DNA from: Yuukianura sp. NJ FZ-2021
Lineage: Eukaryota
Assembly (NCBI GenBank): GCA_046563655.1
Contig: CM102290.1
Coordinates: 12,338,001-12,402,000 of the forward strand
Length of the DNA: 64,000 nt
Direction: 5' to 3'
Numbering within the stretch: position 1 is the first letter of the stretch; each line of letters opens with the position of its first letter. Under the pieces are notes generated by a model, which saw nothing but the letters and a program-made list of their open reading frames with translations, had not been told where the DNA came from and did not search any database. The translations under genes and the position numbers were made by a program. Shown here in pieces: positions 14,777 to 52,000 of the stretch.

Positions 14777-16189
14777 CTGATTATGGTCACGTCACGTCGA
14801 AATTAATTTCGTGTTATTTTTTATATTATAATTCGTATTTCGTATAGAAGGAGTTTCGGAATTCGCGTCAGCTTCACAATAATTTTCACACTATAAGATG
14901 ATGATGATGTTTTAGCCAAAAAAAATTTTTTTTTTGAAATTTTCAAAGTGGTCCCAAATTTTTTCGGATCCAGAAAAAAACTTCTTTTTTTTTGGACAAC
15001 TTTTTCGAAATTTTTTTCCCCCCGCATTTCACTTTTTTCGACGTTTTAAGGCATTTCCAATCGTTTTCTGCAAAACCCTTGTATTTGACCCTTGAAACCA
15101 TTGACGACACAGTCTAGCAACTTGAACTTCTGGTGAAAGCGTTCCGTAAAAACCGAAAAATCGGAAAGGAAAGCAGAAAGAAGAACGGCATGGGAATGTG
15201 TAAATTCGGCGTAATTTACCATACTTCTGTAAATACAATTCAATAAACATAATTTCATAATAATTTAACGCAAATGTTTCCGTGGTATTGATAGATTAGA
15301 ATTAAGTCTACCCGTGTGGTATTAAATATTTTATAGTTTAGGTTAACAAATGCTAAACTTGAGTAGATTATAAAACAAACAAACGAATAAGGACAATTCT
15401 AAACTTTTAATCGCACAACTACTTGACATGAATTTCTGTTTCCCCGGTGGTATAGTCATGTAAAATTAAATCAAAGTTAAGATTAACTAACTCATTCGTA
15501 CTATGAGTAACCTAATATGAACTGCCTAGCAGTAACACAAGCCTTAATGCCTAACCTAACTTTTAAGCTAAATTAAACTTTATTCAACGTGCAATTTCAA
15601 ATCCATTTTCAAAAATTCGGCACTGGTATAAAACAATAATCAATGGATTAAAATTTTAACCCAATTTAAAGAAAACAAAACACACAATTTGTTTGTAAAA
15701 CTTATTCTTTTCGATTTTTGAATTCATTTTTCGCCAAGAGTTAGACGTTGAAAATTCGAAATTTAAAATTAAACTCCAACTCTATAAATTCAATATTCGA
15801 GTTTAAGATAAGAATTAGGGTTTCAAAATTTTAGTATTCGAACTCCTATTTAGTACTAACTGTAGCTAAACATAGCATTCCTAATTGTAACGAAACAATC
15901 AGTATAAAATATTGTTTTGCAAAAATAAATGCCAATTTTGATATTTAAGTTGACTCTTCATGGTTTCAGATAAAGTGGAATCCGTTTAGATAAACTGCAA
16001 ATCCATTGCAAACTCTTCAACAAGTTGGCATCAAAATTTTCAGTTCATGCAGCTACTGTTCATTTCTTCGCACTGACTCTGTCGTCATTCTTTTTCAAAA
16101 TTGTAGCCCCATTTGTAGCATAAAAGTTTTTCAATTTTGGCAATAAAATTGCCATATTTTCCACTGCATTTGTTTAACATACGTCCATC

Positions 16190-17353
16190 ATGGATGGATT
16201 CGTGAAGCAGATCCAGGGTTTAGCTGCTAGTGTCTACCAAGGCAATGTCCAAGCCGCCGCTGTCATCGTCCTTCCGGCTTTCCGTCTTCACCATCCATTG
16301 ACCGTGGGAATTCTGTGCGTTTTGACGCTACTTGCGACGATGCAACTCGCTGGTAAGGCCATTCAGTGTACTGTTGACCCCGCCATTCCAGAACCTGTCA
16401 TGAACACATACTGCTGGATCCACTCCACCTACACACTTCCAGACCTCCGTGATGGAAAAGTTGGTCTGACTGTGGTCAGTCCTGGAGTAGGGAGCATGCG
16501 CACTGAAAATGAGCCCATTGTGTACCACAAGTACTACCAATGGGTCGTGTTCTTCATGCTGTTCCTAGCCATTCTGTCGTACTTGCCATACTACATCTGG
16601 ACTGTCCTTGAAAATGGACGAATCAAAATGCTGCTCATTGCCGGTGAAAAGACAAAGAAGGAAGACCTTGACCTCAAGGCAGTCATTGCCTTTTTGTCCA
16701 AAAACTTCGCCAACCACAACAACTACTACAGAGTCTACATTGCATGTGAAGTCCTCAACCTCATTGTAGTTCTATTTGAAATGTACTTGATCAATGTCTT
16801 CCTTGGATATGAGTTTACGACATACGGATTCGAAGTGCTCCAGTTCATTGACCAAGACTCGAACAGATCGGATCCAATGGACGCCATTTTCCCGAAAGTG
16901 ACGAAATGCACGTTCAGAAAATTCGGACCGTCCGGAAACATCATCCCCTTTGATGGCCTCTGTGTCCTGTCTATGAACATTTTTCATGAGAAAACGTTCA
17001 TTTTCCTCTGGTTCTGGCTCTGGATTGTCCTAATTCTAACTGCGATTGGAATCATTTGGAACATTGTTTGCCTCTGTTCACACAGTTACAGATCGTATCT
17101 TCTGCGCAAGAAAGTACTCAACTTCGGGCGTCATCCAGACCAACGGAATGACCCGAGATTTGACCCGATCATTCGTCTTCCAACGCCAGGCAACCCCAAG
17201 TTTGAAGCGATTGAAACGATTATGAACAGACTTGATCCGGGAGACTGGTTCGTTTTGTACCAACTGAGCAGAAATATGTGGCCACATCATTTTGCACAAC
17301 TCATCCGAGAGTTGGCACTTGAATTCAAATGGAAAGAACCGAAAAGTGAATGA
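16190..17353 (+). CDS. Innexin (inx2-like gap-junction protein), single-exon CDS, 387 aa
   Basis: MNTYCWIHSTY, the KYYQWV signature, DPMDAIFPKVTKCTFRKFGPSG, DGLCVLSMNIFHEKTFIFLWFW and GDWFVLYQL. Four hydrophobic segments. Confidence 0.96.
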   Translation: MDGFVKQIQGLAASVYQGNVQAAAVIVLPAFRLHHPLTVGILCVLTLLATMQLAGKAIQCTVDPAIPEPVMNTYCWIHSTYTLPDLRDGKVGLTVVSPGVGSMRTENEPIVYHKYYQWVVFFMLFLAILSYLPYYIWTVLENGRIKMLLIAGEKTKKEDLDLKAVIAFLSKNFANHNNYYRVYIACEVLNLIVVLFEMYLINVFLGYEFTTYGFEVLQFIDQDSNRSDPMDAIFPKVTKCTFRKFGPSGNIIPFDGLCVLSMNIFHEKTFIFLWFWLWIVLILTAIGIIWNIVCLCSHSYRSYLLRKKVLNFGRHPDQRNDPRFDPIIRLPTPGNPKFEAIETIMNRLDPGDWFVLYQLSRNMWPHHFAQLIRELALEFKWKEPKSE

Positions 17354-18405
17354 AAAGCTAAAAAAAATACATATGTGTCTAATGATAAATGATTAAAACC
17401 AAACTGTAGGTACTAGAAGTATTAAAGGCCACAACGATTCGGATTTCCAGTTTTTTTTAACCAAAACGACAGCCCCACTTTACAGCTTCTTGATGAGAAA
17501 TAAACTTGGTAGTCAAAATTGTTATATTATTGATCACCGGAAGCTCCTTTATGCATTCCATTTGTCTGTCTGTCTGGCCGGCCGTCAACGGCAATTATCT
17601 TATAAACGGCTCAACATTTCCGGAATCTGTTGTACCATTGCCAGTGTCGCATGATATTCACTTTTTCTGCATTTCGTCAACGGTTGGATATCCAGTGGAA
17701 GAAATGGACGAAATGGATGAATCCAAAGGGGAGGAGCATTGCCCGCGGGGTTTGAATTAATTAAATAGGAAAAGCTTAAACAATTCAAAATGCCGTACTA
17801 AATGAAAGGAATACGTAATTTTAAATTTGATTTTTTTTTTTAGTTTTGCGCTGAATTTTTTGTTTTTTCCATCCACTCAAAGTTGCCATCTTTCGCTACT
17901 TTCGTACACCGCATTACAACCCGATTTAATATTTTCTGAACTTTTAAACAAAAAATGCTTTTTGTTCTTTTCAGGCAAAGTTAGTAATTAGGCTGAAATA
18001 AGCTGAAATAGGAACAAATTAGTTAATCGATTTGTTTGCAACCGTCATATTTCTTAGAATTATGAAAAACGGGAGAAGCTTACTGAATAATTTAAACAGC
18101 GAGGCTCACTTTTTTTAAAGTTCACTTTAACCTTATTTTTTTAATATTCTCCCCTTCCTTCTTAAACTTGCAATTTTTCGAGTTTCATCAAATTTTGCAA
18201 GGAATCCGCCCACCCGCTTCTATTCAATAACCAATCAACTAATAGTATTCAAATGCCAATATTAGTTGAATATCCGTAGTTGAGTTTCCAATGTTGTTCT
18301 TTAACTTATAAAAAAAAATAACAAATTTTTAGACACACTTTTTAGAATTACAATTTCACCCTAACACCTTGCCACATTAGCTGACATTGCTCCTGGCGTG
18401 CAAAA

Positions 18406-19805
18406 ATGTTGTCAGTGGAGTGTCTTAAACCATTCCACAGATTCATTCATTTTGGAAATTTAATTCACATTTTGCCAATTAATTACAACGAGGCAACAGG
18501 AGAAATTTACGTCTGCTCGAATGGACCGAAGTACGTCCGTATTGTCCCATTTTGCTTCATGTTGTTGTCAATTGTAGTACAAACGTGTCTCGTAACTCTG
18601 TTTGCGTGGTGTCTTTGTCGCGATCGACATTCAACGCCTACAGACGTCATAGTAGGATGCAACATTATCATAGCCATAGTTGCAACTTTTCCGACGTATT
18701 ACACTTTTGGAGTAACCTATGACCTGATCCCCGTACATTTTCATGGACTGCTGTTCTTTGACAAACTTGAAAGTAAGTTTCATGTTAAACAAAAAAAAAA
18801 TTTGTTTAATTTTGTCGATTTTTTTTTTCAGGAAGAATATGTGGCAAGCAGTATGAGGAGTCGCCTGATAGGAAATATGAAATTTTCTCCAACATCATCT
18901 TTGGAATTGCGTCTATATTTGTAGTACTTGGATATCCGGCATGGATTGTTGCAATTCACTACAATTTTCCAGGATTCAGATACTTCAATACTGGAAACCT
19001 TTTGGTGACAACTCTCAATTGTACTTGGTTCTTGCCACTGTACACAATGAATGTCGCCTTAGGCTGTATGTTCGCCTACATTGCAATTTTCCATGTACTT
19101 GTCACCATAACATTCCAGAAGACCTGTGCAAATAAGCGGTAATTCGCCCTATGCTGCCAAAATCCCAAATTACACGTGTAATTATTCCTTTACAAAAAAA
19201 TGCCCAAAAGATTTCTACTTTTTTTGAAAAGAAGGAACATATATTGTACAATGTATTTAGTATATAAAAACGAGGAGTGACATTTTTTTTTGTGTTGTAG
19301 TAAACAATTGGATGGCCATGGAGGACAGTACATTGAAGACGGCATGAGTTGGGACCAGTTGAATCAAAAGTGGTATCGTATCATGCAAGTTCACCATACC
19401 ATGTTCATGGACTTCGCAGGGTCCCTGTTACCATGGTATTTGCCAATATGCAGTCTCATTATGATCCTCGCCCTCTTCGCCTTGATTCGCCTAATGCGAT
19501 TCCTAGTGCCCTTGGTCACAATCACTCTCATTGCATCTTTTGTTTTAGCTTTTGGAGTAATTAACATATGTGTCGAAGGTTTTGCAATTGTTAGGAAACT
19601 ATCCAAGACATCAGGCGCTAAGACAGGGCGAACAATTCCAAAGAAATTGCGACTTGCACTGCAACGGTCAAACCGGCCCCTCAAGTTCGCAGTGGGGAAC
19701 TTCTTTTACATCTCCGACGACACGTTCATTGTTCTTGTGAACTCAATTGTAGCCGTTGTTGTGCAGTTACTTGTTGGTATTCCAGCGCCACAACATATGA
19801 AATAA
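18406..19805 (+). CDS. Gustatory-receptor-like multi-pass membrane chemoreceptor, 3 exons, about 390 aa
   Basis: Exons at about 18406-18772, 18832-19138 and 19301-19805 splice GT-AG in frame. Many TM helices. The C-terminus RPLKFAVGNFFYISDDTFIVLVNSIVAVVVQLL resembles the TM7 region of the insect chemoreceptor superfamily. Confidence 0.6.
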
Positions 19806-20367
19806 ACACAATGTAAAGTAGCAAAAGCTACTTCATAATATTATCAGTAATGTCTGTCTGTCTGCCTGTCTGTTTGACTGAAATGGGGCTAGTATTGGGG
19901 GGGGGATTGTAAATCGTCTTTATTTGAGTAAAACTGGCATTAAAAACGTTCGGCGTTGAGTTTGTTTGGAATTCAGTGAATTCGCATAAGTTTAAACAAT
20001 GTTGGCGCGTGCAAATTCTTTGCCTACATTGTTTGCTTTATAGAAAGTTTCAATTACATGTGTATCCTAGAATTGTTCATACCGTTGATGTCAGCAAAAA
20101 ATTCAATTTCTATAGAGATTCGCAACTTTTATTGAAAGAAGAACTGGAGACAAAAATTTTTTGTCTTATATCATCGTAAGCTCAATTAAAAAAATGGCAA
20201 CAATAAGCAGTTTAGTTAAATGCTTCGGCCCAAATCATAAGTAAATAAGTCCGATGTAATAGCAACCTCATTTGGAAAGTAGCGGTGAATACGCGAGCTG
20301 AAATTTTGTTTTTTCGATTGCTGAAATTTTGAAAACAATTTAAAATTATCCGACATACAAGGCCAAC

Positions 20368-21227
20368 ATGAATACATTCAGGAACGGATTCTGTTTGTTA
20401 CTGTCATTGTGTGGCAAGTCAAAAAACTTAATCTTTTCCACTCACTTTGCAAATATACTTGAAAATTTGGGAACTAAAATTTCAAATTAAATGAAGATGT
20501 TTTATATTCCAGCGCTGTTGTCAGCAGCATATGGTGATCGCTGTGACCATCTCTTCCGAAGTGCTGCGGACAAGAAAGCCTACAACAAGCGCGTTGTTCT
20601 TCAGTATTACAAAGAGGCATTCACTAATCCTCAGAACGCTAACGCTGCCGTTGAGAAGTTCGTTGTAGCCGGTTACATTCAGCATGACCCAGACGTGGCC
20701 GATGGAAGAGAGGCAACATATAAAACTATCGGCAATTAACTTTATTTTTCCAAGATTTCAAATTCTAGTTTTTCAAAAATTGTTCAAATATTATTTTAAG
20801 GCTTTGCTGGAGTTTCAAACTGCTCTATTTGGAAATTCCACAACGGATCCGGTTCAGTTCATCGCCCATATCGCTGCTGATGGAGACTTGGTCTGGGTTC
20901 ACGAACTGGACAGTGAGTCATTATCTACAAAATTTCATTTTTTTAACTTTGTAGTTTTACTTGTCGAGGTTTTTATTTTTGAAGGTATTGGTCCAAGCGC
21001 CATGAGCGTACAAGTAAACATATGGAGGTATTACATTATTACATTTATAACACCAACACATTTCCCATAGTGTGAATCTATATTTTTTCCCGCGTTTATT
21101 TAAATTCTCTCCATCTGCGTTTTCGTTTTTTGATAGACTGGATTGCGGTCTCCTCGTGGAACACTGGGATGTCGTACAAGCTGTCGACCCTAACGCCACC
21201 TACGCCAACGATCATCCGTTCTTCTAA
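20368..21227 (+). CDS. Secreted SnoaL-like/NTF2-fold protein, paralog A (5 exons)
   Basis: Signal-peptide-like MNTFRNGFCLLLSLCALLSAAYG is followed by NKRVVLQYYKEAF...YIQHDPDVADGREALLEF...HIAADGDLVWVH...VNIWRLDCGLLVEHWDVVQ...HPFF*. YIQHxP, GDLV and VEHWDV are motifs of microbial SnoaL-like proteins. Exons at about 20368-20413, 20513-20712, 20801-20912, 20985-21027 and 21137-21227. Confidence 0.85.
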
Positions 21228-21730
21228 CATGCGCAATCTGCCATGGACGTTTGCGTTCTTATGATTTTATAAAACGTTTAATTTTTTCAAGAGTTTCAAA
21301 ATGTTGCGCCAAATAAAAAATTTTTATTTCAAAGATACGAATTGAACATAACCTTTGGACGACTAAATCTGATAAGCCACTGGACAACTGGTACTGCTAA
21401 AAATACTACCAGAAGAAGGCGTTAGGTTAAGTTAGTTTCAAAATTTAAAAAAAAATGAGAAAAGTATTATAGAAGAATTGAAAACCAGCGTTCAGAATTA
21501 GATTTTGAGAATTCTCTAGTTTTTGAACTCAGAAAATAGTGAAATTCAAAAAAATAATAATAATAACTTTGTGTCTTTACAAAAATAGATTCAAATTTTA
21601 GGAAATTTCCTTATTTCATACGACAATCCATTCCGTGTACTCCAATTGGCAAAATGCAAAATCCAAGCAAATTTCTTTTCATGGTAATGACAGTGTCATC
21701 CTCCTTTCATCTGTAGCATGTCATTAGCGC

Positions 21731-21855
21731 GAAAACAATAAGCGCGAATTCCACAAGTTGGCAACAGTGAAATTGAACCTTAAGGTGGGTTAGGCTTCAT
21801 TGGTAATGTAAGTTCAGTGTTGCCAACTTGTGGAAAATTCGCGCTTATTGTTTTC
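21731..21855. repeat. Inverted repeat with ~38-bp arms between the two SnoaL-like paralogs
   Basis: GAAAACAATAAGCGCGAATT-CCACAAGTTGGCAACA pairs with TGTTGCCAACTTGTGG-AA-AATTCGCGCTTATTGTTTTC across a ~50-bp spacer. Confidence 0.85.
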
Positions 21856-22145
21856 ACTCTATTCACCAGAAACAGTTTCATCGCAGTTTCTGTTGATTTC
21901 ATTGAAACAAAGCAATTCTTTTAAAATGGTGTCAATGGAAACGTTCAAACAATTTCAAAAATTGCTTCGGTAAGCAGTGCAGTCTTGTCGAATTCCTAAA
22001 ACTAAGTGAGCTTTAAAAACTTGAAGCCCTCTGTCACGTCAATCTCATTTAAGAACTAGTCGTGAAAGTATCTCGCAAAAATTTTCAACTGCTTTTATTC
22101 AATTTTCAAAATTTTGAATCAAAATTTGGTAATTTGTTGATCAAC

Positions 22146-23066
22146 ATGGAATCATCCAGGAAAAGATTCTTTCTGGTCTTGGCCTTGTTCGGTAAACTAA
22201 AAACTCTACTAAAATTGCTACTTTAAAATTCAATTTACTGACTTTAACTGTCTTAATTGGCATCGCAAAAATCAAAATTTTGAAATTATTTTTTCAACAA
22301 GTCAATTTTCAATATTAATTAAGATGTTTGTTTCCGATTCTAGTGCTGTTTTCTGCAGTAGTTGCAGATCGTTGTGACCATCTCTTCCGAAGTACTGAAG
22401 CCAAAGAAGCTTACAACAAGCGAGTTGTTCTTCAGTATTACAAAGAGGCATTCACTAATCCTCAGAATGTTGCAACTGCAGATGAGAAATTTGTCACCCC
22501 CGACGGTTTCATTCAGCATGCTCCAAATGTCGCTGATGGAAGAGAGGCAAAACATGAAGCATTTACTAATCCGCTTGTTCTTGAATTTACTTTCGAAACT
22601 CAAAAGTTGGAAGTGTTTTTTTTTTTGTTTGAAAAATTTTGGACTGTTAATTGCAGGCTCTCATTGCGTTTCAACAGTCCATAACCGGCACCGCCACTAG
22701 AAGTCCGATTGATTTTATTGCTAAAATTGCCGCTGATGGAGACTTGGTCTGGGTTCACGAACTGGACAGTGAGTTTTCAAAAAATAAAAAATTTAGCCCA
22801 AAGTTTAACACGATTTTGCAACTTAACAATGAAGCAAAAATTTTACTGTTCTAGGTAACCCTCTTGACCCAACCCAAAAGACTGTGATCGTTCACATCTA
22901 TAGGTGAGGTCAATCAGCCCGCCTGTTTTTTTTTTTTCAAAATTTCCCTCGATTAAAGTTTTGGAATTTGAATAGACTCGATTGCGGTATATTTGTGGAG
23001 CATTGGGATGTCGTACAACCCGTTGACCCCAACGCTACATACGCCAACGCTCATCCGTTCTTTTAA
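22146..23066 (+). CDS. Secreted SnoaL-like/NTF2-fold protein, paralog B (5 exons)
   Basis: MESSRKRFFLVLALFVLFSAVVADRCDHLFRS...NKRVVLQYYKEAF...FIQHAPNVADGREALIAF...KIAADGDLVWVH...VHIYRLDCGIFVEHWDVVQ...HPFF*. Same four intron positions as paralog A. Confidence 0.85.
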
Positions 23067-23368
23067 CATTCACGGTCTGTCCGAAAATCTCTCTGGTTTG
23101 AAATTTTGAAAATTCTAATAGTTTCCGTTTTGTGACAAATAAATAACACATCTCTAAAGTTGAAGAAATGTTAAGAATTTTATTTTCTTCAAGCATTTGG
23201 AAGGATTTCAGGAGAAGAGTTTCACAGAATTTAGAACAACTTGAAATTTTTTAGAATAGAGTAATTGAAATAAAACTGAAACGAATACTGTACTTTCAGT
23301 TTTTCATTTTAAAGTTGAATTCAGAAATTTCTCGTTTTTCATTTTGAACTTGTAATCAAAAATTTCTT

Positions 23369-26300
23369 TTAGTACAAGTCAAAATGTGTCGTTCCGTGTT
23401 CGGCGTAGGAGTGAGTAGAATCGGGAGACTAAAAAACAACAATTCAAATCAAGATTTTGAATTTCTTATTTTAGTCATTTTATAAATAAATTAATATTAA
23501 ATTAATATAATACAAAATGTATATAAATGTTCATTACCGAGTAAGTTTCTCTTGGAATGCGTGTAACATGCGGAGTTTGATGATAGTACTTTCCAGTTCC
23601 AAGGTCAACCCAGTCACCATTGTTGGCTCCAGACAGCGGAGACACTTGCTGATAACTGCGACTGTCCCTCGTTAAAGCAGGGAGACCAACGATGTCACCC
23701 GCCTTCTTTGCAGTGTCATACTTTGACCTTGGCGTATTCTTGGCCCCCTGAACAACCAGGGGTTGATCCGTCGCAGAACCTTCTGCCACCAAGGTCACTT
23801 CGCGATGAATCACGTTGACCTGGAAGAAAAATTGAGGTACATTCAAAGGTCAACCAAGCGTGACCTTTGACGAATCACCACTAGCGTTAACCTTACCTGG
23901 GTTCCCTTCATGTTCGAATTTGGAATTAGCCAGTCCTCAAGATAGTCCAGTACTTGTCCATTCGCATCCAACCGAGCGACTCGATCAAACGGATAGCCCT
24001 GGAAAAATTTCAGTTAAAATTTTAGTTTTGTTTAAAATTCTGTTTATTTTTAATTTTGTAACTCGAATGTTTTAAAGCTATTTAAAAATGTGTTGACGCA
24101 ACGTAGGCATTTTTGCATACTAGAAGTTCCTTGAGTGTAAGTCATACTAAAAATAGTTGAAAATTTGCAAAGGTGTAACTCCAAAACTGGGTCAAAGATT
24201 TACCATTGGTTTTGTATCCGGAAACAATTCGTTCAAGATCCCTACAAAGTAATCCATGTTTAAATCATTTTTCTGCAACTTTAGAAAAAAAAAAACAAAA
24301 AAAAAAAATTCTACCGCAGAATCCAATTGATGGTTTGCAAACTTGCGCTTCGGCATCGATCGGATTTTTACGTCGGACGCGATCCTGTTCCCAGTTGGAA
24401 ATGACGACTACAACGTCACAGGGTAGTCCATCCGCCTTACCCTTGGGCACAAGCAAATGATGAGGCCAACCTAATTTTAAAAAAAGTTGTGAGTTTACAA
24501 AAATTTTGAAGCTGATTTTTGAAAAAGATTTCAGAGGTCGTGAGGTCAATTTCTATCAGTCGAAGCTCAAGAACTCACCGCATCCGCAGATAGTCTGTTC
24601 TGCATTGAGAACTGCATCCGCTCTTTCAAAATGCTCAAACGACTGTTCCCATGGAATTGTGATGCTGGAGTCCACTGACTTCCGTTCAAAAAGATTTGAG
24701 CCCGGTTTCACTAGAACAAAATATTCCCAAATTTTAAAAATTTTGAAATTGAGTAAAAAGATGTCAACGAACATGACACGGTGAACTTGTCCATTTCGAA
24801 GAATAGACGCATTTGCTGGGCAAGCGTAAGACGAAGTTGGTGTTCGTCAAGAGATGGCGCCATAAAAACTCGAACTGTGCCGACCTGTGGCCTTCCGGTG
24901 GCGTTCGTGACCTAATAAACATGAAAACGAAAAAAATATAATAAAATATATTATTTTTGAAACATGCTGTGCATTACAACGCCATTCGGTTCAGTAACTA
25001 TTATTTACCTCCATTCTGTACGAAAAATCTTCATGCTGAAGGTGAGTAAAGCGGGCTAAAATGGGGCCCAAGTTGTTGAAACTTCCGCGCCCAAAGTCCA
25101 AACCACGTGACAAGTCCACATCACGTTGCTCCCAGTACGTGACCAGCGTATTCGGTGTTCTGTCTTCAGTCGTCACTGTCACGGAGTTCACAGTTACTCC
25201 AGCCCATACCAACTACCAAAATCAACAAAAGTGAACCACGCTTGCCCGTACTTTGGTGGACAAACGGCGGAAACTTTTAAAATACCGTCAATGCTGCAAT
25301 TTTGACAGTTTACGTGCTCCTATAGACGTATCGGACATGTCCAGGCTTTAAAACAAAAAACTACATGTGCTATTGACTTGAAACTTATTTCAAAAGTTCG
25401 AACATTTTTTTTTGAAATTATGGTAGTTAGAGTTAAGTTATGCACAACCACTTTAAGTATTTCAAGAAATAAATGTAATGAATGTTTTTTTTTGGAAAAG
25501 TAATGTCATACGACTGACGTTTTCTGGCTGGTATGGCGGCAATGTCGCCTTGTGTCTCAGGAAAAGATTGTCTGTTAAACAAGAACGCAAATGTAAAACT
25601 TAAAAAAATCTTCTTTTTTTTCGAAATCTAAAAAAAAAGGAAATTTTCGGTTTTCTGTTATCCTCGGATTTGAATTTCAAAAACAAAATTGGTTACCGAT
25701 AGTTTTGTGCCATCTGAAAAATGCAGGATCACGGACAGCAGTTTCAGCTAAAATTTAAAAAAAAGTTTGATTTTAAAAATCTCCGTGAAGGTTAAAGAAA
25801 TTGCAATTCCGTTTTAAATTAATTACTTGCTCCCATCACGCCGACATTTTCCTATAAAGTTAAAATATCAACTTTTGAAATATGAAAAAAAAAAGACATT
25901 TAAACGAATTTCCGTTTTTCTTGTTATCTTGCCTTGAAACGAAAATCTGAAACAAAATGTTGAAAATAATCGTGTATACTCTTTTTAAATGCAGGATTGA
26001 AATAGGATTTTAAAAGTAAGAAGTAGTACCTGGGTCAACCATCATCCCAATTGAACTGTGTCCGTCGTTGTGCAGAGTCCCATAGAATGCTGCGTTTGGT
26101 GACAAGGTAGATGCTGATGTTAATCAAACAATAATTAATTAATTAAGGTAATGTTTCGCATTTATATAATATGTTTGCAAATACTGTAACCACTCTAGCC
26201 TAACCAGTGTTATGAATAACCAAAAAAAACTATACTAAAATCAATAAAGTGAAATTTATTTGAAATTTTGTTTTGATTTGTTACTCACATTCCACCATCG

Positions 26301-28488
26301 CACCTAAGATGTCAATTCCTTTCTCATTGTTCAAACTGATCGTTTGACTCGTTGGCTGATTAAAAATTAAAAGATACTCAATATTCAAAATTTATTTGAC
26401 ATGGAGAAAGTGACAGCAATGTTAAGCGGTTACCGTAATGGCAATGCCCTGGTCAATTGCTTCAGTCAAACGCTGGTACCACGTTTCCATCTGTACCATT
26501 TCAATGATGATTCCTCGATTGTTGGGGTCCATGGCTCGATTTACGTTCTAATTGAGACATTATTACATCATTGCATACTTTATCATATTGAAAATATATT
26601 TATTTGAACAATACATACTTATAGAAATATGTTTTGTAGTTACCTTGAATGTCGTGTTGGGCTGTCGCGTGCCCCAGTTCAAGGCCGAGTTCTCCAGAGT
26701 CAATTTGGGAAAATATCCTTCTTCCAAAATGTCCCGGGGAATGTCAATGGCAACGGTACGTGCCAAACCGTTGGCTAAGCGTTCAGTATCATATCTAAAG
26801 CAAAAGGCTGAATTGTCAATTCAGTTCTTCGTCGAAGCGTATTTGTTTTAACAGTTGTACCTCACAATTTCCCAAAATCAAAAACTTCATTTATTTTGAA
26901 AACGATATTTTGAAAAGTTCACAGTTCAAAGTCTCATTTCAACAAATATGGTAAATCGTCATTTCATGTAATGAAATACTTACCTGGCCACCATATCGTG
27001 GTGCATCTTGAAAAACAGTTCACCTTTTCTGTAATTAATTTCAAGTTTTCAAATGTCAAAGCTGAAAACATTTGTGTATTAGGGACGCACCTATCCCGTT
27101 GTCCAGGCGGAGCGTTACCGGCGTACACAATGTGCCAAATCTGGATTTCAGATCAAGTTTTACAAAGAATGATACAAATAATTTTTTTTTAAACGGGTCA
27201 AATTCTTTTTAAACTGACCGATAGTATGCTTGTAATGTACTTTGTAACAACATTCGATGCTTACCCAGTGGGCAGTATTGAGTGCAAGGTCCTTTAAAAC
27301 AAAACAATTAAAAACTTAGGAAATATTTTGTCTCGAATTTCAAGTTAGCCTTAAAAATTCAAATTTCAAAATTAAAAATTGTAGAGGATAAAATTCACAC
27401 CTACCTCTCTGAAATAGACCACTTTGTTCTCTGGGTTGAGGTCAATTCCACTGAATGACCTATCCGCTACAACTATGGCCTGCGATTTAGGTCAAAGGTC
27501 ATTCACTCCATAATTTCATAGTCTTTGCAAATAATTGTAGTGCACATAAATATTTCCATGGTTTTACCCTGTTAAGTTCAGGAAGTCTGGCTTGGTTTCT
27601 GGCTTCACGCAAAACGTTTCCATTCAAAAAACGATCCGGAGTGATCTCCCACAGCGCTAAAATTCAAATCAAGTACAGCTTAGTTTCAATTTAAAAATTT
27701 CTGAAAATTTTGAATGTTGTATTACCGGGAAGTCGAAATGATTTCATGTCCGGCCGGAGAATGATTGATCGAGCAACGGCATAAATCCAAAGATGAGAAT
27801 TAACTTCATCACGACAGAGGCAGGCAGCGCTGAAGAAGTCATCCAGGGACGTTTGTTCTGAAAAATAAATTTTGTTTTCAAAAATTGAAAAAAAAAAATT
27901 TTAAAGAGTCTTGAGAAATAACGCTTGAAGTATTTTGGAAATCCCTTTTAGTGAAATACCCGAGAAAATTTTGATGAGAGCATCGGCCGCATCCAAGTGA
28001 CTTTTGAAAAATGGAGAGAAAATGGCGTCTCTTGGAATGACCTTGACATGGGCAAGGTCATAAGGCACAGAAGAGTATGACACGTTGATGTTTCGGATTT
28101 TGTCTGCTGGGAGACCTTTGCGCAACTCCACTACAGCTTTGGCTACGTTCGGCGGCTAAGATTGTTCAAAACAACGTCAGGTTGAAAAAATTCAAAAAAT
28201 CTTAATTTTTTGAAAAAAAAAATGAAAAAATTACCAAGCGATCCGTTGGGGTCACGTACAAAACTCGGTTGTCACCATGACCTCTACAGAGTCAAGAATA
28301 CAAAGATTACTTCAAGTTTCAAGTTTTTTTTTTAATTTTTAAAATTTTTTGAATTTTTGTGTAAAATTTTGAAATCTTTGAAATTTGGAGGTCACTGACC
28401 TTGGCCCAAAATAAATTGGTTCACTTATTCGTTCGAATAAGTACATGAACTTCGTCTGCCATCCAACCTCGGTCGGCAGTCGACTCAT
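23369..28488 (-). CDS. PPO: Prophenoloxidase (type-3 copper, hemocyanin superfamily), about 24 short exons, with a C-terminal extension
   Basis: N-terminus MSRLPTEVGWQTKFMYLFERISEP has no signal peptide. CuA: YFREDLALNTAHWIWHIVY...RKGELFFKMHH. CuB: FYGTLHNDGH...TAVRDPAFFRWH. Also DVDLSRGLDF, ARFTHLQH, the CGCGWPHHLLVPKG motif and PMGYPFDR. Stop TAA at 23369-23371. Confidence 0.92.
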
Positions 28489-43017: not shown

Positions 43018-46000
43018 TAATTCCGAATTTAGTTTTTGGCAACTCGAATCTCAAAACTTAAAAAATTTACTTAACGTATCCGAAATTTCTTAAAACGCAA
43101 AGAGGGAAAACAACTCCTTTCTAAATAATATTTCTAAATTTTTGACTAAACCTTCTCTGCACCATCACTTAGGAACACATACTAAATCCCACAACCGAAA
43201 CCTACGGAATCACTTCTTGGCGAATGTGTCCAGGCACAGATCGTTTCAAAGTCTCAATCCGCATTGGTTCGGGGATGTGGTAAAAAACTTAGTCCCTGTG
43301 TCTCTTGCTTGAATGCGCAGCAGAAGTGTTATTATTAGAGTTAACGAGACTTGACTTGACATTTAACGTGACTTTCGGTTTTTTTCCTATACGCTAGAAC
43401 ATACGGCATTGTAGTAGATTGGGCGCGAGGACGGATCGAGGCTTGCAAGTAGCTGTTCAGGTGACACAGGGCAGGGAGGGGTGTGAATCTCTCTCGGTAA
43501 GTCCGGAGTGTGCCAGTTCGAGTGAACTGGGGCCGGAATCTCGAGCGTAGTCATTGACTAGTCCTCTGTCGTATGTATCTTCGTGTAGACTAATTCCGAA
43601 TTTCGTTTTTCACAACTCGAATCTCAACTTAAAAAATTTACTTAACGTATCCGAAATTTCTTAAAACGCAAAAAGGGAAAACAACTCCTTTCTAAATAAT
43701 ATTTCCAAATTTTTGACTAAACCTTCTCTGTACCATCACTTAGGAACACATACTAAATCCCACAACCGAAACCTACGGAATCACTTCTTGGCGAATGTGT
43801 CCATGCACAGATCGTTTCAAAGTCTCAATCCGCATTGGTTCGGGGATGTGGTAAAACTTAGTCCCTGTGTCTCTTGCTTGAATGTGCAGCAGAAGTGTTA
43901 TTATTAGAGTTAATGAGACTTGACTTGACATTTAACGTGACTTTCGGTTTTTTTCCTATACGCTAGAACATACGGCATTGTAGTAGACTGGGCGCGAGGA
44001 CGGATCGAGGCTTGCAAGTAGCTGTTCAGGTGACACAGGGCAGGGAGGGGTGTGAATCTCTCTCGGTGAGTCCGGAGTGTGCCAGTTCGAGTGAACCGGG
44101 GCCGGAATCTCGAGCGTAGTCATTGACTAGTCCTCTGTCGTATGGATCTTCGTGTAGACTAATTCCGAATTTAGTTTTTGACAAGTCGAATCTCAACTTA
44201 AAAAATTTACTTAACGTATCCGAAATTTCTTAAAACGCAAAAAGGGAAAACAACTCCTTTCTAAATAATATTTCTAAATTTTTGACTAAACCTTCTCTGT
44301 ACCATCACTTAGGAACACATACTAAATCCCACAACCGAAACCTACGGAATCACTTCTTGGCGAATGTGTCCATGCACAGATCGTTTCAAAGTCTCAATCC
44401 GCATTGGTTCGGGGATGTGGTAAAAAACTTAGTCCCTGTGTCTCTTGCTTGAATGTGCAGCAGAAGTGTTATTATTAGAGTTAATGAGACTTGACTTGAC
44501 ATTTAACGTGACTTTCGGTTTTTTTCTATACGCTAGAGCATACGGCATTGTAGTAGACTGGGCGCGAGGACGGATCGAGGCTTGCAAGTAGCTGTTCAGG
44601 TGACACAGGGCAGGGAGGGGTGTGAATCTCTCTCGGTGAGTCCGGAGTGTGCCAGTTCGAGTGAACCGGGGCCGGAATCTCGAGCGTAGTCATTGACTAG
44701 TCCTCTGTCGTATGGATCTTCGTGTAGACTAATTCCGAATTTAGTTTTTGACAAGTCGAATCTCAACTTAAAAAATTTACTTAACGTATCCGAAATTTCT
44801 TAAAACGCAAAAAGGGAAAACAACTCCTTTCTAAATAATATTTCTAAATTTTTGACTAAACCTTCTCTGTACCATCACTTAGGAACACATACTAAATCCC
44901 ACAACCGAAACCTACGGAATCACTTCTTGGCGAATGTGTCCAGGCACAGATCGTTTCAAAGTCTCAATCCGCATTGGTTCGGGGATGTGGTAAAACTTAG
45001 TCCCTGTGTCTCTTGCTTGAATGTGCAGCAGAAGTGTTATTATTAGAGTTAATGAGACTTGACTTGACATTTAACGTGACTTTCGGTTTTTTTCCTATAC
45101 GCTAGAACATACGGCATTGTAGTAGATTGGGCGCGAGGACGGATCGAGGCTTGCAAGTAGCTGTTCAGGTGACACAGGGCAGGGAGGGGTGTGAATCTCT
45201 CTCGGTAAGTCCGGAGTGTGCCAGTTCGAGTGAACTGGGGCCGGAATCTCGAGCGTAGTCATTGACTAGTCCTCTGTCGTATGGATCTTCGTGTAGACTA
45301 ATTCCGAATTTAGTTTTTGACAAGTCGAATCTCAACTTAAAAAATTTACTTAACGTATCCGAAATTTCTTAAAACGCAAAAAGGGAAAACAACTCCTTTC
45401 TAAATAATATTTCCAAATTTTTGACTAAACCTTCTCTGTACCATCACTTAGGAACACATACTAAATCCCACAACCGAAACCTACGGAATCACTTCTTGGC
45501 GAATGTGTCCATGCACAGATCGTTTCAAAGTCTCAATCCGCATTGGTTCGGGGATGTGGTACAGAAAGTTAGTCCCTGTGTTTCTTGCTTGAATGCGCAT
45601 CAGAAGTGTTATTATTAGAGTTAACGAGACTTGACTTGACATTTAACGTGACTTTCGGTTTTTTTCTATACGCTAGAACATACGGCATTGTAGTAGACTG
45701 GGCGCGAGGACGGATCGAGGCTTGCAAGTAGCTGTTCAGGTGACACAGGGCAGGGAGGGGTGTGAATCTCTCTCGGTGAGTCCGGAGTGTGCCAGTTCGA
45801 GTGAACCGGGGCCGGAATCTCGAGCGTAGTCATTGACTAGTCCTCTGTCGTATGGATCTTCGTGTAGACTAATTCCGAATTTAGTTTTTGACAAGTCGAA
45901 TCTCAACTTAAAAAATTTACTTAACGTATCCGAAATTTCTTAAAACGCAAAAAGGGAAAACAACTCCTTTCTAAATAATATTTCTAAATTTTTGACTAAA

Positions 46001-49000
46001 CCTTCTCTGTACCATCACTTAGGAACACATACTAAATCCCACAACCGAAACCTACGGAATCACTTCTTGGCGAATGTGTCCATGCACAGATCGTTTCAAA
46101 GTCTCAATCCGCATTGGTTCGGGGATGTGGTAAAAGTTAGTCCCTGTGTTTCTTGCTTGAATGTGCAGCAGAAGTGTTATTATTAGAGTTAATGAGACTT
46201 GACTTGACATTTAACGTGACTTTCGGTTTTTTCCTATACGCTAGAGCATACGGCATTGTAGTAGACTGGGCGCGAGGACGGATCGAGGCTTGCAAGTAGC
46301 TGTTCAGGTGACACAGGGCAGGGAGGGGTGTGAATCTCTCTCGGTGAGTCCGGAGTGTGCCAGTTCGAGTGAACCGGGGCCGGAATCTCGAGCGTAGTCA
46401 TTGACTAGTCCTCTGTCGTATGGATCTTCGTGTAGACTAATTCCGAATTTAGTTTTTGACAAGTCGAATCTCAACTTAAAAAATTTACTTAACGTATCCG
46501 AAATTTCTTAAAACGCAAAAAGGGAAAACAACTCCTTTCTAAATAATATTTCTAAATTTTTGACTAAACCTTCTCTGTACCATCACTTAGGAACACATAC
46601 TAAATCCCACAACCGAAACCTACGGAATCACTTCTTGGCGAATGTGTCCAGGCACAGATCGTTTCAAAGTCTCAATCCGCATTGGTTCGGGGATGCTTAG
46701 TCCCTGTGTCTCTTGCTTGAATGTGCAGCAGAAGTGTTATTATTAGAGTTAATGAGACTTGACTTGACATTTAACGTGACTTTCGGTTTTTTTCCTATAC
46801 GCTAGAACATACGGCATTGTAGTAGACTGGGCGCGAGGACGGATCGAGGCTTGCAAGTAGCTGTTCAGGTGACACAGGGCAGGGAGGGGTGTGAATCTCT
46901 CTCGGTGAGTCCGGAGTGTGCCAGTTCGAGTGAACCGGGGCCGGAATCTCGAGCGTAGTCATTGACTAGTCCTCTGTCGTATGGATCTTCGTGTAGACTA
47001 ATTCCGAATTTAGTTTTTGACAAGTCGAATCTCAACTTAAAAAATTTACTTAACGTATCCGAAATTTCTTAAAACGCAAAAAGGGAAAACAACTCCTTTC
47101 TAAATAATATTTCTAAATTTTTGACTAAACCTTCTCTGTACCATCACTTAGGAACACATACTAAATCCCACAACCGAAACCTACGGAATCACTTCTTGGC
47201 GAATGTGTCCATGCACAGATCGTTTCAAAGTCTCAATCCGCATTGGTTCGGGGATGTGGTAAAAAAACTTAGTCCCTGTGTCTCTTGCTTGAATGTGCAG
47301 CAGAAGTGTTATTATTAGAGTTAATGAGACTTGACTTGACATTTAACGTGACTTTCGGTTTTTTCCTATACGCTAGAGCATACGGCATTGTAGTAGACTG
47401 GGCGCGAGGACGGATCGAGGCTTGCAAGTAGCTGTTCAGGTGACACAGGGCAGGGAGGGGTGTGAATCTCTCTCGGTGAGTCCGGAGTGTGCCAGTTCGA
47501 GTGAACCGGGGCCGGAATCTCGAGCGTAGTCATTGACTAGTCCTCTGTCGTATGGATCTTCGTGTAGACTAATTCCGAATTTAGTTTTTGACAAGTCGAA
47601 TCTCAACTTAAAAAATTTACTTAACGTATCCGAAATTTCTTAAAACGCAAAAAGGGAAAACAACTCCTTTCTAAATAATATTTCTAAATTTTTGACTAAA
47701 CCTTCTCTGTACCATCACTTAGGAACACATACTAAATCCCACAACCGAAACCTACGGAATCACTTCTTGGCGAATGTGTCCAGGCACAGATCGTTTCAAA
47801 GTCTCAATCCGCATTGGTTCGGGGATGTGGTAAAAAACTTAGTCCCTGTGTCTCTTGCTTGAATGTGCAGCAGAAGTGTTATTATTAGAGTTAATGAGAC
47901 TTGACTTGACATTTAACGTGACTTTCGGTTTTTTTCCTATACGCTAGAACATACGGCATTGTAGTAGACTGGGCGCGAGGACGGATCGAGGCTTGCAAGT
48001 AGCTGTTCAGGTGACACAGGGCAGGGAGGGGTGTGAATCTCTCTCGGTGAGTCCGGAGTGTGCCAGTTCGAGTGAACCGGGGCCGGAATCTCGAGCGTAG
48101 TCATTGACTAGTCCTCTGTCGTATGGATCTTCGTGTAGACTAATTCCGAATTTAGTTTTTGACAAGTCGAATCTCAACTTAAAAAATTTACTTAACGTAT
48201 CCGAAATTTCTTAAAACGCAAAAAGGGAAAACAACTCCTTTCTAAATAATATTTCTAAATTTTTGACTAAACCTTCTCTGTACCATCACTTAGGAACACA
48301 TACTAAATCCCACAACCGAAACCTACGGAATCACTTCTTGGCGAATGTGTCCATGCACAGATCGTTTCAAAGTCTCAATCCGCATTGGTTCGGGGATGTG
48401 GTAAAAAAACTTAGTCCCTGTGTCTCTTGCTTGAATGTGCAGCAGAAGTGTTATTATTAGAGTTAATGAGACTTGACTTGACATTTAACGTGACTTTCGG
48501 TTTTCCTATACGCTAGAACATACGGCATTGTAGTAGACTGGGCGCGAGGACGGATCGAGGCTTGCAAGTAGCTGTTCAGGTGACACAGGGCAGGGAGGGG
48601 TGTGAATCTCTCTCGGTGAGTCCGGAGTGTGCCAGTTCGAGTGAACCGGGGCCGGAATCTCGAGCGTAGTCATTGACTAGTCCTCTGTCGTATGGATCTT
48701 CGTGTAGACTAATTCCGAATTTAGTTTTTGACAAGTCGAATCTCAACTTAAAAAATTTACTTAACGTATCCGAAATTTCTTAAAACGCAAAAAGGGAAAA
48801 CAACTCCTTTCTAAATAATATTTCTAAATTTTTGACTAAACCTTCTCTGTACCATCACTTAGGAACACATACTAAATCCCACAACCGAAACCTACGGAAT
48901 CACTTCTTGGCGAATGTGTCCATGCACAGATCGTTTCAAAGTCTCAATCCGCATTGGTTCGGGGATGTGGTAAAAAAACTTAGTCCCTGTGTCTCTTGCT

Positions 49001-52000
49001 TGAATGTGCAGCAGAAGTGTTATTATTAGAGTTAATGAGACTTGACTTGACATTTAACGTGACTTTCGGTTTTTTTCCTATACGCTAGAGCATACGGCAT
49101 TGTAGTAGACTGGGCGCGAGGACGGATCGAGGCTTGCAAGTAGCTGTTCAGGTGACACAGGGCAGGGAGGGGTGTGAATCTCTCTCGGTGAGTCCGGAGT
49201 GTGCCAGTTCGAGTGAACCGGGGCCGGAATCTCGAGCGTAGTCATTGACTAGTCCTCTGTCGTATGGATCTTCGTGTAGACTAATTCCGAATTTAGTTTT
49301 TGACAAGTCGAATCTCAACTTAAAAAATTTACTTAACGTATCCGAAATTTCTTAAAACGCAAAAAGGGAAAACAACTCCTTTCTAAATAATATTTCTAAA
49401 TTTTTGACTAAACCTTCTCTGTACCATCACTTAGGAACACATACTAAATCCCACAACCGAAACCTACGGAATCACTTCTTGGCGAATGTGTCCAGGCACA
49501 GATCGTTTCAAAGTCTCAATCCGCATTGGTTCGGGGATGTGGTAAAAAAACTTAGTCCCTGTGTCTCTTGCTTGAATGTGCAGCAGAAGTGTTATTATTA
49601 GAGTTAATGAGACTTGACTTGACATTTAACGTGACTTTCGGTTTTTTTCCTATACGCTAGAACATACGGCATTGTAGTAGACTGGGCGCGAGGACGGATC
49701 GAGGCTTGCAAGTAGCTGTTCAGGTGACACAGGGCAGGGAGGGGTGTGAATCTCTCTCGGTGAGTCCGGAGTGTGCCAGTTCGAGTGAACCGGGGCCGGA
49801 ATCTCGAGCGTAGTCATTGACTAGTCCTCTGTCGTATGGATCTTCGTGTAGACTAATTCCGAATTTAGTTTTTGACAAGTCGAATCTCAACTTAAAAAAT
49901 TTACCTATACGCTAGAACATACGGCATTGTAGTAGACTGGGCGCGAGGACGGATCGAGGCTTGCAAGTAGCTGTTCAGGTGACACAGGGCAGGGAGGGGT
50001 GTGAATCTCTCTCGGTGAGTCCGGAGTGTGCCAGTTCGAGTGAACCGGGGCCGGAATCTCGAGCGTAGTCATTGACTAGTCCTCTGTCGTATGGATCTTC
50101 GTGTAGACTAATTCCGAATTTAGTTTTTGACAAGTCGAATCTCAACTTAAAAAATTTACTTAACGTATCCGAAATTTCTTAAAACGCAAAAAGGGAAAAC
50201 AACTCCTTTCTAAATAATATTTCTAAATTTTTGACTAAACCTTCTCTGTACCATCACTTAGGAACACATACTAAATCCCACAACCGAAACCTACGGAATC
50301 ACTTCTTGGCGAATGTGTCCATGCACAGATCGTTTCAAAGTCTCAATCCGCATTGGTTCGGGGATGTGGTAAAAAAACTTAGTCCCTGTGTCTCTTGCTT
50401 GAATGTGCAGCAGAAGTGTTATTATTAGAGTTAATGAGACTTGACTTGACATTTAACGTGACTTTCGGTTTTTTTCCTATACGCTAGAACATACGGCATT
50501 GTAGTAGACTGGGCGCGAGGACGGATCGAGGCTTGCAAGTAGCTGTTCAGGTGACACAGGGCAGGGAGGGGTGTGAATCTCTCTCGGTGAGTCCGGAGTG
50601 TGCCAGTTCGAGTGAACCGGGGCCGGAATCTCGAGCGTAGTCATTGACTAGTCCTCTGTCGTATGGATCTTCGTGTAGACTAATTCCGAATTTAGTTTTT
50701 GACAAGTCGAATCTCAACTTAAAAAATTTACTTAACGTATCCGAAATTTCTTAAAACGCAAAAAGGGAAAACAACTCCTTTCTAAATAATATTTCTAAAT
50801 TTTTGACTAAACCTTCTCTGTACCATCACTTAGGAACACATACTAAATCCCACAACCGAAACCTACGGAATCACTTCTTGGCGAATGTGTCCAGGCACAG
50901 ATCGTTTCAAAGTCTCAATCCGCATTGGTTCGGGGATGTGGTAAAAAACTTAGTCCCTGTGTCTCTTGCTTGAATGTGCAGCAGAAGTGTTATTATTAGA
51001 GTTAATGAGACTTGACTTGACATTTAACGTGACTTTCGGTTTTTTTCCTATACGCTAGAACATACGGCATTGTAGTAGACTGGGCGCGAGGACGGATCGA
51101 GGCTTGCAAGTAGCTGTTCAGGTGACACAGGGCAGGGAGGGGTGTGAATCTCTCTCGGTGAGTCCGGAGTGTGCCAGTTCGAGTGAACCGGGGCCGGAAT
51201 CTCGAGCGTAGTCATTGACTAGTCCTCTGTCGTATGGATCTTCGTGTAGACTAATTCCGAATTTAGTTTTTGACAAGTCGAATCTCAACTTAAAAAATTT
51301 ACTTAACGTATCCGAAATTTCTTAAAACGCAAAAAGGGAAAACAACTCCTTTCTAAATAATATTTCTAAATTTTTGACTAAACCTTCTCTGTACCATCAC
51401 TTAGGAACACATACTAAATCCCACAACCGAAACCTACGGAATCACTTCTTGGCGAATGTGTCCATGCACAGATCGTTTCAAAGTCTCAATCCGCATTGGT
51501 TCGGGGATGTGGTAAAAAAACTTAGTCCCTGTGTCTCTTGCTTGAATGTGCAGCAGAAGTGTTATTATTAGAGTTAATGAGACTTGACTTGACATTTAAC
51601 GTGACTTTCGGTTTTTTTCCTATACGCTAGAACATACGGCATTGTAGTAGACTGGGCGCGAGGACGGATCGAGGCTTGCAAGTAGCTGTTCAGGTGACAC
51701 AGGGCAGGGAGGGGTGTGAATCTCTCTCGGTGAGTCCGGAGTGTGCCAGTTCGAGTGAACCGGGGCCGGAATCTCGAGCGTAGTCATTGACTAGTCCTCT
51801 GTCGTATGGATCTTCGTGTAGACTAATTCCGAATTTAGTTTTTGACAAGTCGAATCTCAACTTAAAAAATTTACTTAACGTATCCGAAATTTCTTAAAAC
51901 GCAAAAAGGGAAAACAACTCCTTTCTAAATAATATTTCTAAATTTTTGACTAAACCTTCTCTGTACCATCACTTAGGAACACATACTAAATCCCACAACC

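Follow-up and report, generated by a model that had tools for sequence, protein, structure and literature searches.

The stretch analysed here (the window) is 64,000 nucleotides of contig CM102290.1 from Yuukianura sp. NJ FZ-2021, and positions 20368 to 23066 of it hold two adjacent genes, g1 and g2, that encode SnoaL-like proteins. The observation of two such genes with introns in an animal locus, made in an initial annotation of this DNA, is confirmed. We consider it likely that g1 and g2 are functional paralogs, arranged in tandem, whose parent gene came from bacteria and was acquired by a eukaryotic ancestor of this arthropod lineage. The donor most likely carried a Bacteroidota-type gene for an exported SnoaL-like protein. 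The products of g1 and g2 are predicted to be secreted, to have mature chains of about 140 residues folded as an NTF2-type 'cone', and possibly to be N-glycosylated.

The gene models were built by reading the region 19800-23600 in all stop-to-stop frames and then locating the junctions. The interval runs exactly from the g1 ATG at 20368 to the end of the g2 stop codon at 23066. Both genes, with all of the parts described below, lie on the + strand, and each has five exons with the reading frame intact: g1 (20368..21227) has 492 nt of coding sequence for 163 aa, and g2 (22146..23066) has 501 nt for 166 aa. The two proteins are identical at 110 of 166 aligned residues. All of the motifs that had been quoted for a pair of paralogs of ~160 aa were found: NKRVVLQYYKEAF, (Y/F)IQHxPxVADGRE, IAADGDLVWVH, VEHWDVVQ, DRCDH and RLDCG. 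The ADGREA motif is also present, with the correction that its last A is the first codon of exon 3 and not read-through.

In g1, exon 1 (20368..20413) supplies the start codon, in a CAACATG context, and 15 1/3 codons of a hydrophobic leader whose hydropathy peaks at 2.5 (11-residue window). Exon 2 (20513..20712) completes the leader and encodes the DRCDH cysteine and the helices bearing NKRVVLQYYKEAF and YIQHDPDVADGRE. Exon 3 (20801..20912) begins with ALLEFQ and includes an NST sequon and IAADGDLVWVHELD; exon 4 (20985..21027), of 43 nt, encodes a variable loop and a strand with NIWR at its end; and exon 5 (21137..21227) carries the LDCG cysteine, VEHWDVVQ, an NAT sequon, ANDHPFF and the stop codon. 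A polyadenylation-type AATAAA signal (21312..21317) follows 85 nt past the stop. The layout of g2 is the same. Its exon 1 (22146..22191) has the CAACATG start context and the first part of the leader (hydropathy peak 2.9), its exon 2 (22344..22546) the leader end, DRCDH, NKRVVLQYYKEAF and FIQHAPNVADGRE, and its exon 3 (22657..22768) ALIAFQ and again IAADGDLVWVHELD. Exon 4 (22855..22903; 49 nt) has HIYR at its end, exon 5 (22976..23066) has LDCG, VEHWDVVQ, an NAT sequon, ANAHPFF and the stop codon, and AATAAA lies at 23138..23143, 72 nt past the stop. A hydrophobic leader split by intron 1, as had been described, is thus present in both genes, as are the two conserved cysteines of the mature chain.

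All four introns occur at matching positions in g1 and g2, with phases 1, 0, 1 and 2. They occupy 20414..20512, 20713..20800, 20913..20984 and 21028..21136 in g1, and 22192..22343, 22547..22656, 22769..22854 and 22904..22975 in g2. Their lengths range from 72 to 152 nt, and their G+C content is 22-35%, versus 46-49% for the coding exons and 39.5% for the whole window. The initial annotation's claim of four spliceosomal introns at identical positions holds for positions and phases, with one amendment: three of the eight predicted donors read GC, as in GC-AG splicing, instead of GT. These are the donors of intron 1 of g1 (G|GCAAGT; 99 nt, 26% G+C) and of intron 2 in both genes (GAG|GCAACA in g1, where the intron is 88 nt long, and GAG|GCAAAA in g2). 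The donors of g1 introns 3 and 4 and of g2 intron 1 are GT. At intron 2 no junction but the GC one both keeps VADGRE and joins it to A-L-(L/I), colinear and without a gap relative to intron-less homologues, and in the 18 nt preceding the donor the differences between g1 and g2 are synonymous only; both facts support the GC donor. An in-frame GT donor 18 nt upstream was considered and rejected, since its use would remove VADGRE, which is kept in nearly all homologues. Because GC is present in both paralogs, the intron-2 donor would predate the duplication.

No third copy of g1 or g2 was found within the window. In DNA contigs from two sequencing runs the locus is found in organism A and, as fragments that show few differences, in organism B. 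Contigs of run X1 differ from the window by a synonymous T>C change (Cys) at 20412, where the last complete codon of g1 exon 1 has its third base, and by a 6-nt insertion after 20426 in g1 intron 1. These variants point to allelic variation or a near-identical second haplotype.

Assignment of both proteins to the SnoaL-like/NTF2-fold family is sound. A profile that we built locally from 13 relatives, mostly of bacterial type (profile A6), matches g1 with 134.7 bits over residues 31-163 and g2 with 121.8 bits over residues 30-166. The match is not due to chance, since none of 42 reversed or shuffled controls scored against the profile at E<=1000. Compared with single bacterial-type proteins, the spliced products score 85-93 bits, from about residue 31 to the last residue. 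The same profile finds Protein Data Bank (PDB) entry 3g0k, the structural-genomics protein Saro_2880 of unknown function, at 111.6 bits. When 12 hits were scanned with Pfam models, all eight outside the close group passed the SnoaL_2 cut-off and seven of these eight also passed that of SnoaL (PF07366). Among the close relatives, P0001 and P0002 matched SnoaL_2 (PF12680) at 18 bits, under the 27-bit cut-off, and P0003 and P0009 gave no SnoaL_2 match. The named members of the family are bacterial and are called 'ester cyclase', 'nuclear transport factor 2 family protein' or 'predicted SnoaL-like aldol condensation-catalyzing enzyme', the last being the source name of one cluster hit.

The fold was modelled by proxy, on the closest full-length relative among the matches listed (L003). 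Its AlphaFold model has a mean predicted local distance difference test (pLDDT) score of 84.8, with helices at residues 40-60, 65-70 and 87-97 and four long strands between 107 and 149; the N-terminal 39 residues have pLDDT values of 48-65. The best PDB match of the model is again 3g0k, with a template modelling (TM) score of 0.76 on the target's length. The next matches are putative polyketide cyclases, TsrD, limonene epoxide hydrolase, IdmH, ketosteroid isomerase and SnoaL. The model of this relative thus predicts a SnoaL/NTF2-type cone for g1 and g2, in agreement with the family named by the initial annotation.

The 96 rows outside the nine-row clade to which g1 and g2 belong (see below) define 25 alignment positions with conservation of 90% or more; g1 keeps 20 of these and g2 keeps 18. 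The invariant set of the family comprises the N of NK, Y-x-Q-H-N-P, D-G, V-x-x-H, D-I-F-R, E-H-W-D, and a Q, an N and an F. Polar residues kept by both proteins include the Q-H of YIQH, the D-G of ADG, the H of WVH, the R of I-x-R, and E-H-W-D. Exceptions to the conserved set include N74, which is D in g1 and A in g2, and D131, which is N in g1 and H in g2.

Both genes are under purifying selection. The ratio of nonsynonymous to synonymous divergence (dN/dS) between g1 and g2 is 0.27-0.35 overall, 0.22-0.24 for the mature part and 0.76-1.7 for the 23-codon leader, with dS of 0.64-0.81. The leaders have a charged start and a hydrophobic core of 14-16 residues, after which hydropathy falls and small residues precede DRCDH. 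Cysteine in the DRCDH column is found in six of the seven members of the intron-bearing clade; in the LDCG column it is found in all four clade rows with data and in none of the 96 other rows. Both paralogs have an NAT sequon close to the C-terminus. In g1 the two cysteines are Cys26 and Cys137, and the pair probably forms a disulfide. Together with the leader and the N-x-T sequon, this pair fits predicted secretion. Secretion, the disulfide, enzymatic activity and site of action are all properties that we infer. Is secretion a novelty of the animal genes? A crude scan found an export leader in 74 of 80 bacterial homologues (a lipobox in 24, another hydrophobic leader in 50), so the protein was probably extracytoplasmic both before and after transfer; of the two options in the suggestion that it 'became or stayed secreted', the second fits better.

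When 1.84 billion cluster representatives were searched exhaustively with HMMER, using a profile of both exon-2 translations, 25 hits were obtained at E<=1e-3. Four of these are close relatives (P0001, P0002, P0003 and P0009), all singletons, and they sit on metagenome contigs of 636-8572 bp. Two further profile searches covered 5.8 billion proteins, and the best 120 rows of each were inspected. With a profile of the subfamily only, the four close proteins score 182-189 bits and the next protein, of bacterial type, scores 81 bits. With a wider profile that includes bacterial members, 4135 proteins are found at E<=1e-5 among 6624 candidates, and all of the names among the best 120 rows are bacterial (Pseudomonas, Empedobacter, Flavobacterium, Flavisolibacter, Ohtaekwangia, Chitinophagaceae, Vibrio). 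Neither the exhaustive exon-2 search nor the best 120 rows of the two profile searches contain a named animal orthologue, a result that agrees with the proposal of horizontal transfer; broad metazoan orthologues, which the initial annotation had named as a finding that would refute it, did not appear in these searches.

The close relatives bear on the history of the introns. P0002, P0003 and P0009 break off after ..NI(F/V/Y)R, at the site of the phase-2 intron 4, and P0001 continues for eight more residues; such ends are what would be expected of read-through of a phase-2 AG|GT junction. All four read straight through the sites of introns 2 and 3. Among the matches listed from a metagenome scan, one (L001) has a leader intron of 108 nt, 26% G+C and phase 1, lying within one codon of intron 1 of g1 and g2, and lacks intron 2. 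Another, L003, has no introns and sits on a eukaryote-like contig. It encodes a leader of eukaryotic type, a linker rich in Gly and both of the cysteines, with AATAAA past the stop and, upstream of the gene, a low-complexity open reading frame (ORF) rich in His and Pro. Introns 1 and 4 would be older than the lineage of the window, because the first is common to L001 and the site of the other to the four close proteins. The nearest relatives lack introns 2 and 3, which would therefore have been gained in the lineage of the window before g1 and g2 were duplicated; intron gain after transfer, as had been proposed, is in keeping with this.

Further eukaryote-looking family members occur among the database hits: P0007/P0026, P0018/P0027, P0067 and P0014. 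In the first two pairs the family sequence stops at 'FR' and read-through starting with V follows, as a phase-0 intron lying one base from intron 4 would produce. One of these further members has a Ser/Thr/Pro/His-rich linker after the leader, and one is a two-domain protein with a poly-Gln run. These further members suggest that entry of the family into eukaryotes, or its spread among them, is wider than the g1/g2 clade.

The trees draw on 80 organism-labelled bacterial loci together with hits that carry no label. A quick version with 105 rows agrees with a careful one, which has 65 rows and 133 columns after 40 near-duplicate or long-branch rows were dropped and two were added. In the careful tree g1 and g2 are grouped with 99/96 support, as the claim of duplication would have it. 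Seven intron-bearing sequences, namely g1, g2 and five eukaryote-like metagenome relatives, form a clade (100/97), and the addition of L003 and P0012 gives a nine-member group (97/89). One branch (100/97) separates the labelled Bacteroidota from the other labelled phyla. Of the 21 labelled rows from other phyla, 20 (Pseudomonadota, Actinomycetota, Bacillota, Bdellovibrionota and Nitrospirota) fall in a single 100/97 clade, beside which one Bacteroidota row, L041, is placed. Every eukaryote-like row is outside that clade, on the side of the Bacteroidota. The attachment of the g1/g2 clade on the Bacteroidota side is again in line with transfer. A second eukaryote-like group (P0007/P0026, P0018/P0027 and perhaps P0067) lies separately among Bacteroidota-type rows.

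What series of events might have produced this locus? In the scenario that we favor, a eukaryotic ancestor would have acquired a bacterial gene for a Bacteroidota-type exported SnoaL-like protein. A signal peptide of eukaryotic type, interrupted by a phase-1 intron, would then have been added, as would a phase-2 intron close to where the final strands of the fold are encoded. Two cysteines would have arisen as a new pair, the first close to the mature N-terminus and the second immediately ahead of the EHWD strand. In the window's own lineage the gene would have gone on to gain a further two introns, of which one has a GC donor, and a tandem duplication would have given rise to g1 and g2.

Several facts weigh against this reading or limit its reach. 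The splicing of g1 and g2, including the three GC donors, is a predicted gene model. The full spliced proteins were scored with locally built profiles, and relatives served as proxies for Pfam, PDB and structure prediction. Single exons are too short to carry the assignment: none of six exon translations matched Pfam SnoaL or SnoaL_2 at E<=1, a phmmer search of PDB with exon 2 alone gave only a chance MarR-type match (E 1.5), and a word-indexed search with exon 2 against longer proteins gave no match. The nearest relatives of g1 and g2 are metagenome sequences that carry no taxon label, which bears on the age of the acquisition and on its host range. The tree is unrooted and has 133 columns, and a Bacteroidota donor is the best reading only, since it depends on the root lying elsewhere in the tree. 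An approximately unbiased (AU) test does not reject joining both eukaryote-like groups in one clade (p = 0.119), so that one old eukaryotic family may underlie both, and transfer into eukaryotes may have happened once or more than once. Where 92 of 96 other rows have the Asp of DIFR, all six intron-bearing clade rows with data have Asn or His; replacement of this near-invariant residue means that the ancestral chemistry may be altered or lost. No published function was found for this bacterial subfamily in the literature searched, and the bacterial neighborhoods are heterogeneous and offer no clear clue to a substrate. Protein-atlas look-ups point to Ascomycota 'SnoaL-like' clusters with a score of 0.92, as leads only.

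A rival account is that the ancestor of g1 and g2 came to the arthropod lineage by way of a different eukaryote, perhaps fungal or protist, to which the gene had already passed from bacteria. In that event the leader and both cysteines, and possibly introns 1 and 4 as well, would have come ready-made. The properties of L003 are of the right kind, as this gene sits on a eukaryote-like contig with a eukaryotic-type leader, both cysteines, AATAAA and an upstream low-complexity ORF, and it and P0012 are sisters of the intron-bearing clade; the 'FR' ends of the second eukaryote-like group, with their possible phase-0 intron one base from intron 4, and the Ascomycota clusters named first by the atlas point the same way. 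The owners of L003 and P0012 could, however, belong to the same animal lineage, and the atlas scores, with 152-171 shared features, are leads only by the tool's own note. Moreover, no fungal or other named eukaryotic protein appears in the 25 exon-2 hits or in the best 120 rows of either profile search, and we regard an intermediate eukaryotic host as unlikely.

It is very unlikely, in our estimation, that the genes belong to an ancient eukaryotic or metazoan family that was inherited vertically, without transfer, and lost in most lineages. At least five other eukaryote-like sequences are relatives with shared introns, and the AU test permits a single clade of both eukaryote-like groups, as such a history would predict. 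Yet the eukaryote-like sequences lie among Bacteroidota-type ones on short internal branches, not outside all bacteria, and have even the ANxHP(M/F)F tail at the C-terminus in common with Bacteroidota proteins. Vertical descent would call for many independent losses, and the searches described above turned up no named animal protein. Acquisition of a bacterial gene must also be set against the notion that g1 and g2 are transcriptionally dead or decaying foreign DNA, or an artefact of assembly or contamination, which we think extremely improbable. Reading frames are intact over five exons in both genes, dN/dS is 0.22-0.35 with dS about 0.7, and the start context and AATAAA signals are conserved. 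The introns are AT-rich, as is host non-coding DNA, the pair has animal genes to either side at a distance of a few kb, and contigs from two differently coded organisms cover parts of the locus.

What might the g1 and g2 proteins do? SnoaL, ketosteroid isomerase (KSI), limonene epoxide hydrolase and scytalone dehydratase each have a hydrophobic cone with a few acid/base residues, and act without a cofactor. Binding of a small hydrophobic molecule is expected for g1 and g2, since the NTF2 cone and most of the invariant polar residues are kept. We suppose that such a molecule would bind within the cone and would probably be transformed by cofactor-free acid/base chemistry of the isomerase, cyclase or hydrolase type, and that the action would be extracellular, in the gut lumen, haemolymph or cuticle. 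From comparison with these families we would give roughly even chances to the two proteins being enzymes; the main alternative is that, after loss of the Asp, they would serve as binders or carriers. Among 70 flanking ORFs at 35 bacterial loci there was no conserved partner. The scattered neighbors included NAD(P)H-binding/NmrA proteins at four loci, and short-chain dehydrogenases/reductases, zinc-dependent alcohol dehydrogenases and glyoxalases at two loci each.

A more specific proposal, which we consider a long shot, is that g1 and g2 would be secreted tautomerases acting on quinones or quinone methides made by phenoloxidase. A 2016 review describes the genes for quinone and quinone-methide tautomerase activities as then still unidentified (PMC5085778). 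A KSI-kind NTF2 cone, a predicted extracellular location and the clade-specific Asp change would suit such a role, and a hemocyanin-family gene, possibly for prophenoloxidase, lies 1.2 kb downstream. That gene is tail to tail with g2, however, the family is apparently far too narrowly distributed for a general insect enzyme, and the sole hint of quinones from the bacterial relatives is the occasional NmrA-type, short-chain dehydrogenase or glyoxalase neighbor.

How do g1 and g2 compare with known systems? Bacterial COG4922-type proteins (from Mucilaginibacter, Flavobacterium, Ohtaekwangia and Empedobacter, and PDB 3g0k) are homologous to them from end to end, at 85-135 bits, and share the motifs NK..V..FY, YIQHNP.VADG, ADGDLV.(V/I/L)H, (D)IFR, EHWDV.Q and AN.HP(M/F)F. 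Like g1 and g2, these are single-domain proteins, of ~125-130 aa, and mostly exported. Unlike them, g1 and g2 are in an animal genome, have four spliceosomal introns and a eukaryotic leader in place of a lipobox or bacterial leader, and carry the cysteine pair (its second cysteine being absent from 96 of 96 other rows), Asn or His for the DIFR Asp, and N-x-S/T sequons. The nogalonic acid methyl ester cyclase SnoaL (PDB 1sjw), IdmH, TsrD and ChaU have the same NTF2-like alpha+beta cone fold; the L003 model matches 1sjw with a Foldseek E of 7.5e-6 and TM scores of 0.52 on query length and 0.58 on target length. The Pfam families SnoaL and SnoaL_2 match bacterial relatives of g1 and g2, whereas the polyketide cyclases have only 14-21% identity to the L003 model in structural alignments, and there are no polyketide genes near g1 and g2 in the window or at the 35 bacterial loci examined. 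Limonene-1,2-epoxide hydrolase and KSI are of the same fold class as the L003 model (Foldseek E ~1e-6 to 1e-5). The hydrolase 5jpp is a weak hit of profile A6, at 25 bits; neither enzyme shows significant membership of the sequence family, and their likeness to g1 and g2 is one of fold class.

Transfer of microbial genes into arthropods is already well documented. Reported examples are beta-cyanoalanine synthase in mites and Lepidoptera (PMC4011162) and the cdtB/aip56 toxins in insects (PMC10120054). These cases resemble g1 and g2 in that a microbial gene lies among host genes, gained introns and a secretion signal, and was duplicated; the protein families differ. No report of SnoaL-like transfer into arthropods was found in the literature searched, which has the gene lists of the largest insect survey outside it, nor was such a transfer found in 12 of the 15 supplementary files of PMC13389597. 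Within that literature the SnoaL-like case is new, and g1 and g2 add a protein family unreported for such transfers. They also have a readable history, in the form of two older and two younger introns, a GC-donor intron predating the duplication, a new cysteine pair and a changed Asp. Foreign genes that arthropods have kept, spliced and duplicated are often behind detoxification, digestion or defence. The pair further provides a handle on a large exported bacterial family (the 4135 hits at E<=1e-5), for which there is a crystal structure and no known function, so that a substrate for either the bacterial or the animal protein would inform the other.

The locus is arthropod DNA and not a contaminant contig, because innexin, hemocyanin-family and nuclear-receptor genes surround the pair on one 64-kb stretch; the setting among arthropod genes that the initial annotation described is borne out. 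The innexin gene (16178-17353; Pfam match 317.6 bits) lies ~3 kb upstream of g1. The exons of the hemocyanin-family gene (24268-28155, minus strand), convergent with g2, match Hemocyanin_C at 58.7, 44.0 and 36.6 bits, Hemocyanin_M at 29.8 and Hemocyanin_N at 28.0. Its product would be one of three things, a prophenoloxidase, a hexamerin or a hemocyanin; the neighbor had been called a prophenoloxidase, which is right at the level of the hemocyanin family. The tail-to-tail arrangement means that a functional link between this gene and g2 is weakly supported. Other matches in the window are to a nuclear-receptor zf-C4 domain, a protein kinase, an SH2/PH protein (SH2B-like) and ANKRD13.

Three ORFs with a membrane-protein-like composition lie directly upstream of g1 at 18385-19805 on the + strand, and one of them (19281-19805) gives a weak, sub-threshold match to 7tm_6, the insect odorant receptor family (E 0.0021, 17.6 bits versus a cut-off of 25.8). 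Between g1 and g2, at 21711-21875, there is a nested palindrome with 40-nt arms of 80% and 26-nt arms of 92% complementarity. It coincides with a spike in contig depth in run X1 (~16,000 and 6,800, versus ~200-400 in most other bins), and many loose contig ends fall within it, at 21713-21771. The palindrome looks like a high-copy element of the miniature inverted-repeat transposable element (MITE) type inserted between the paralogs. Farther downstream, at ~43055-53366, is a tandem array of ~18 copies of a ~570 bp unit; two ORFs from the array gave no Pfam match. Over a 300-nt reference stretch the copies are mostly 97-100% identical, those at 49645, 52263 and 52851 being more diverged or rearranged, and the array may be a satellite or a young tandem amplification.

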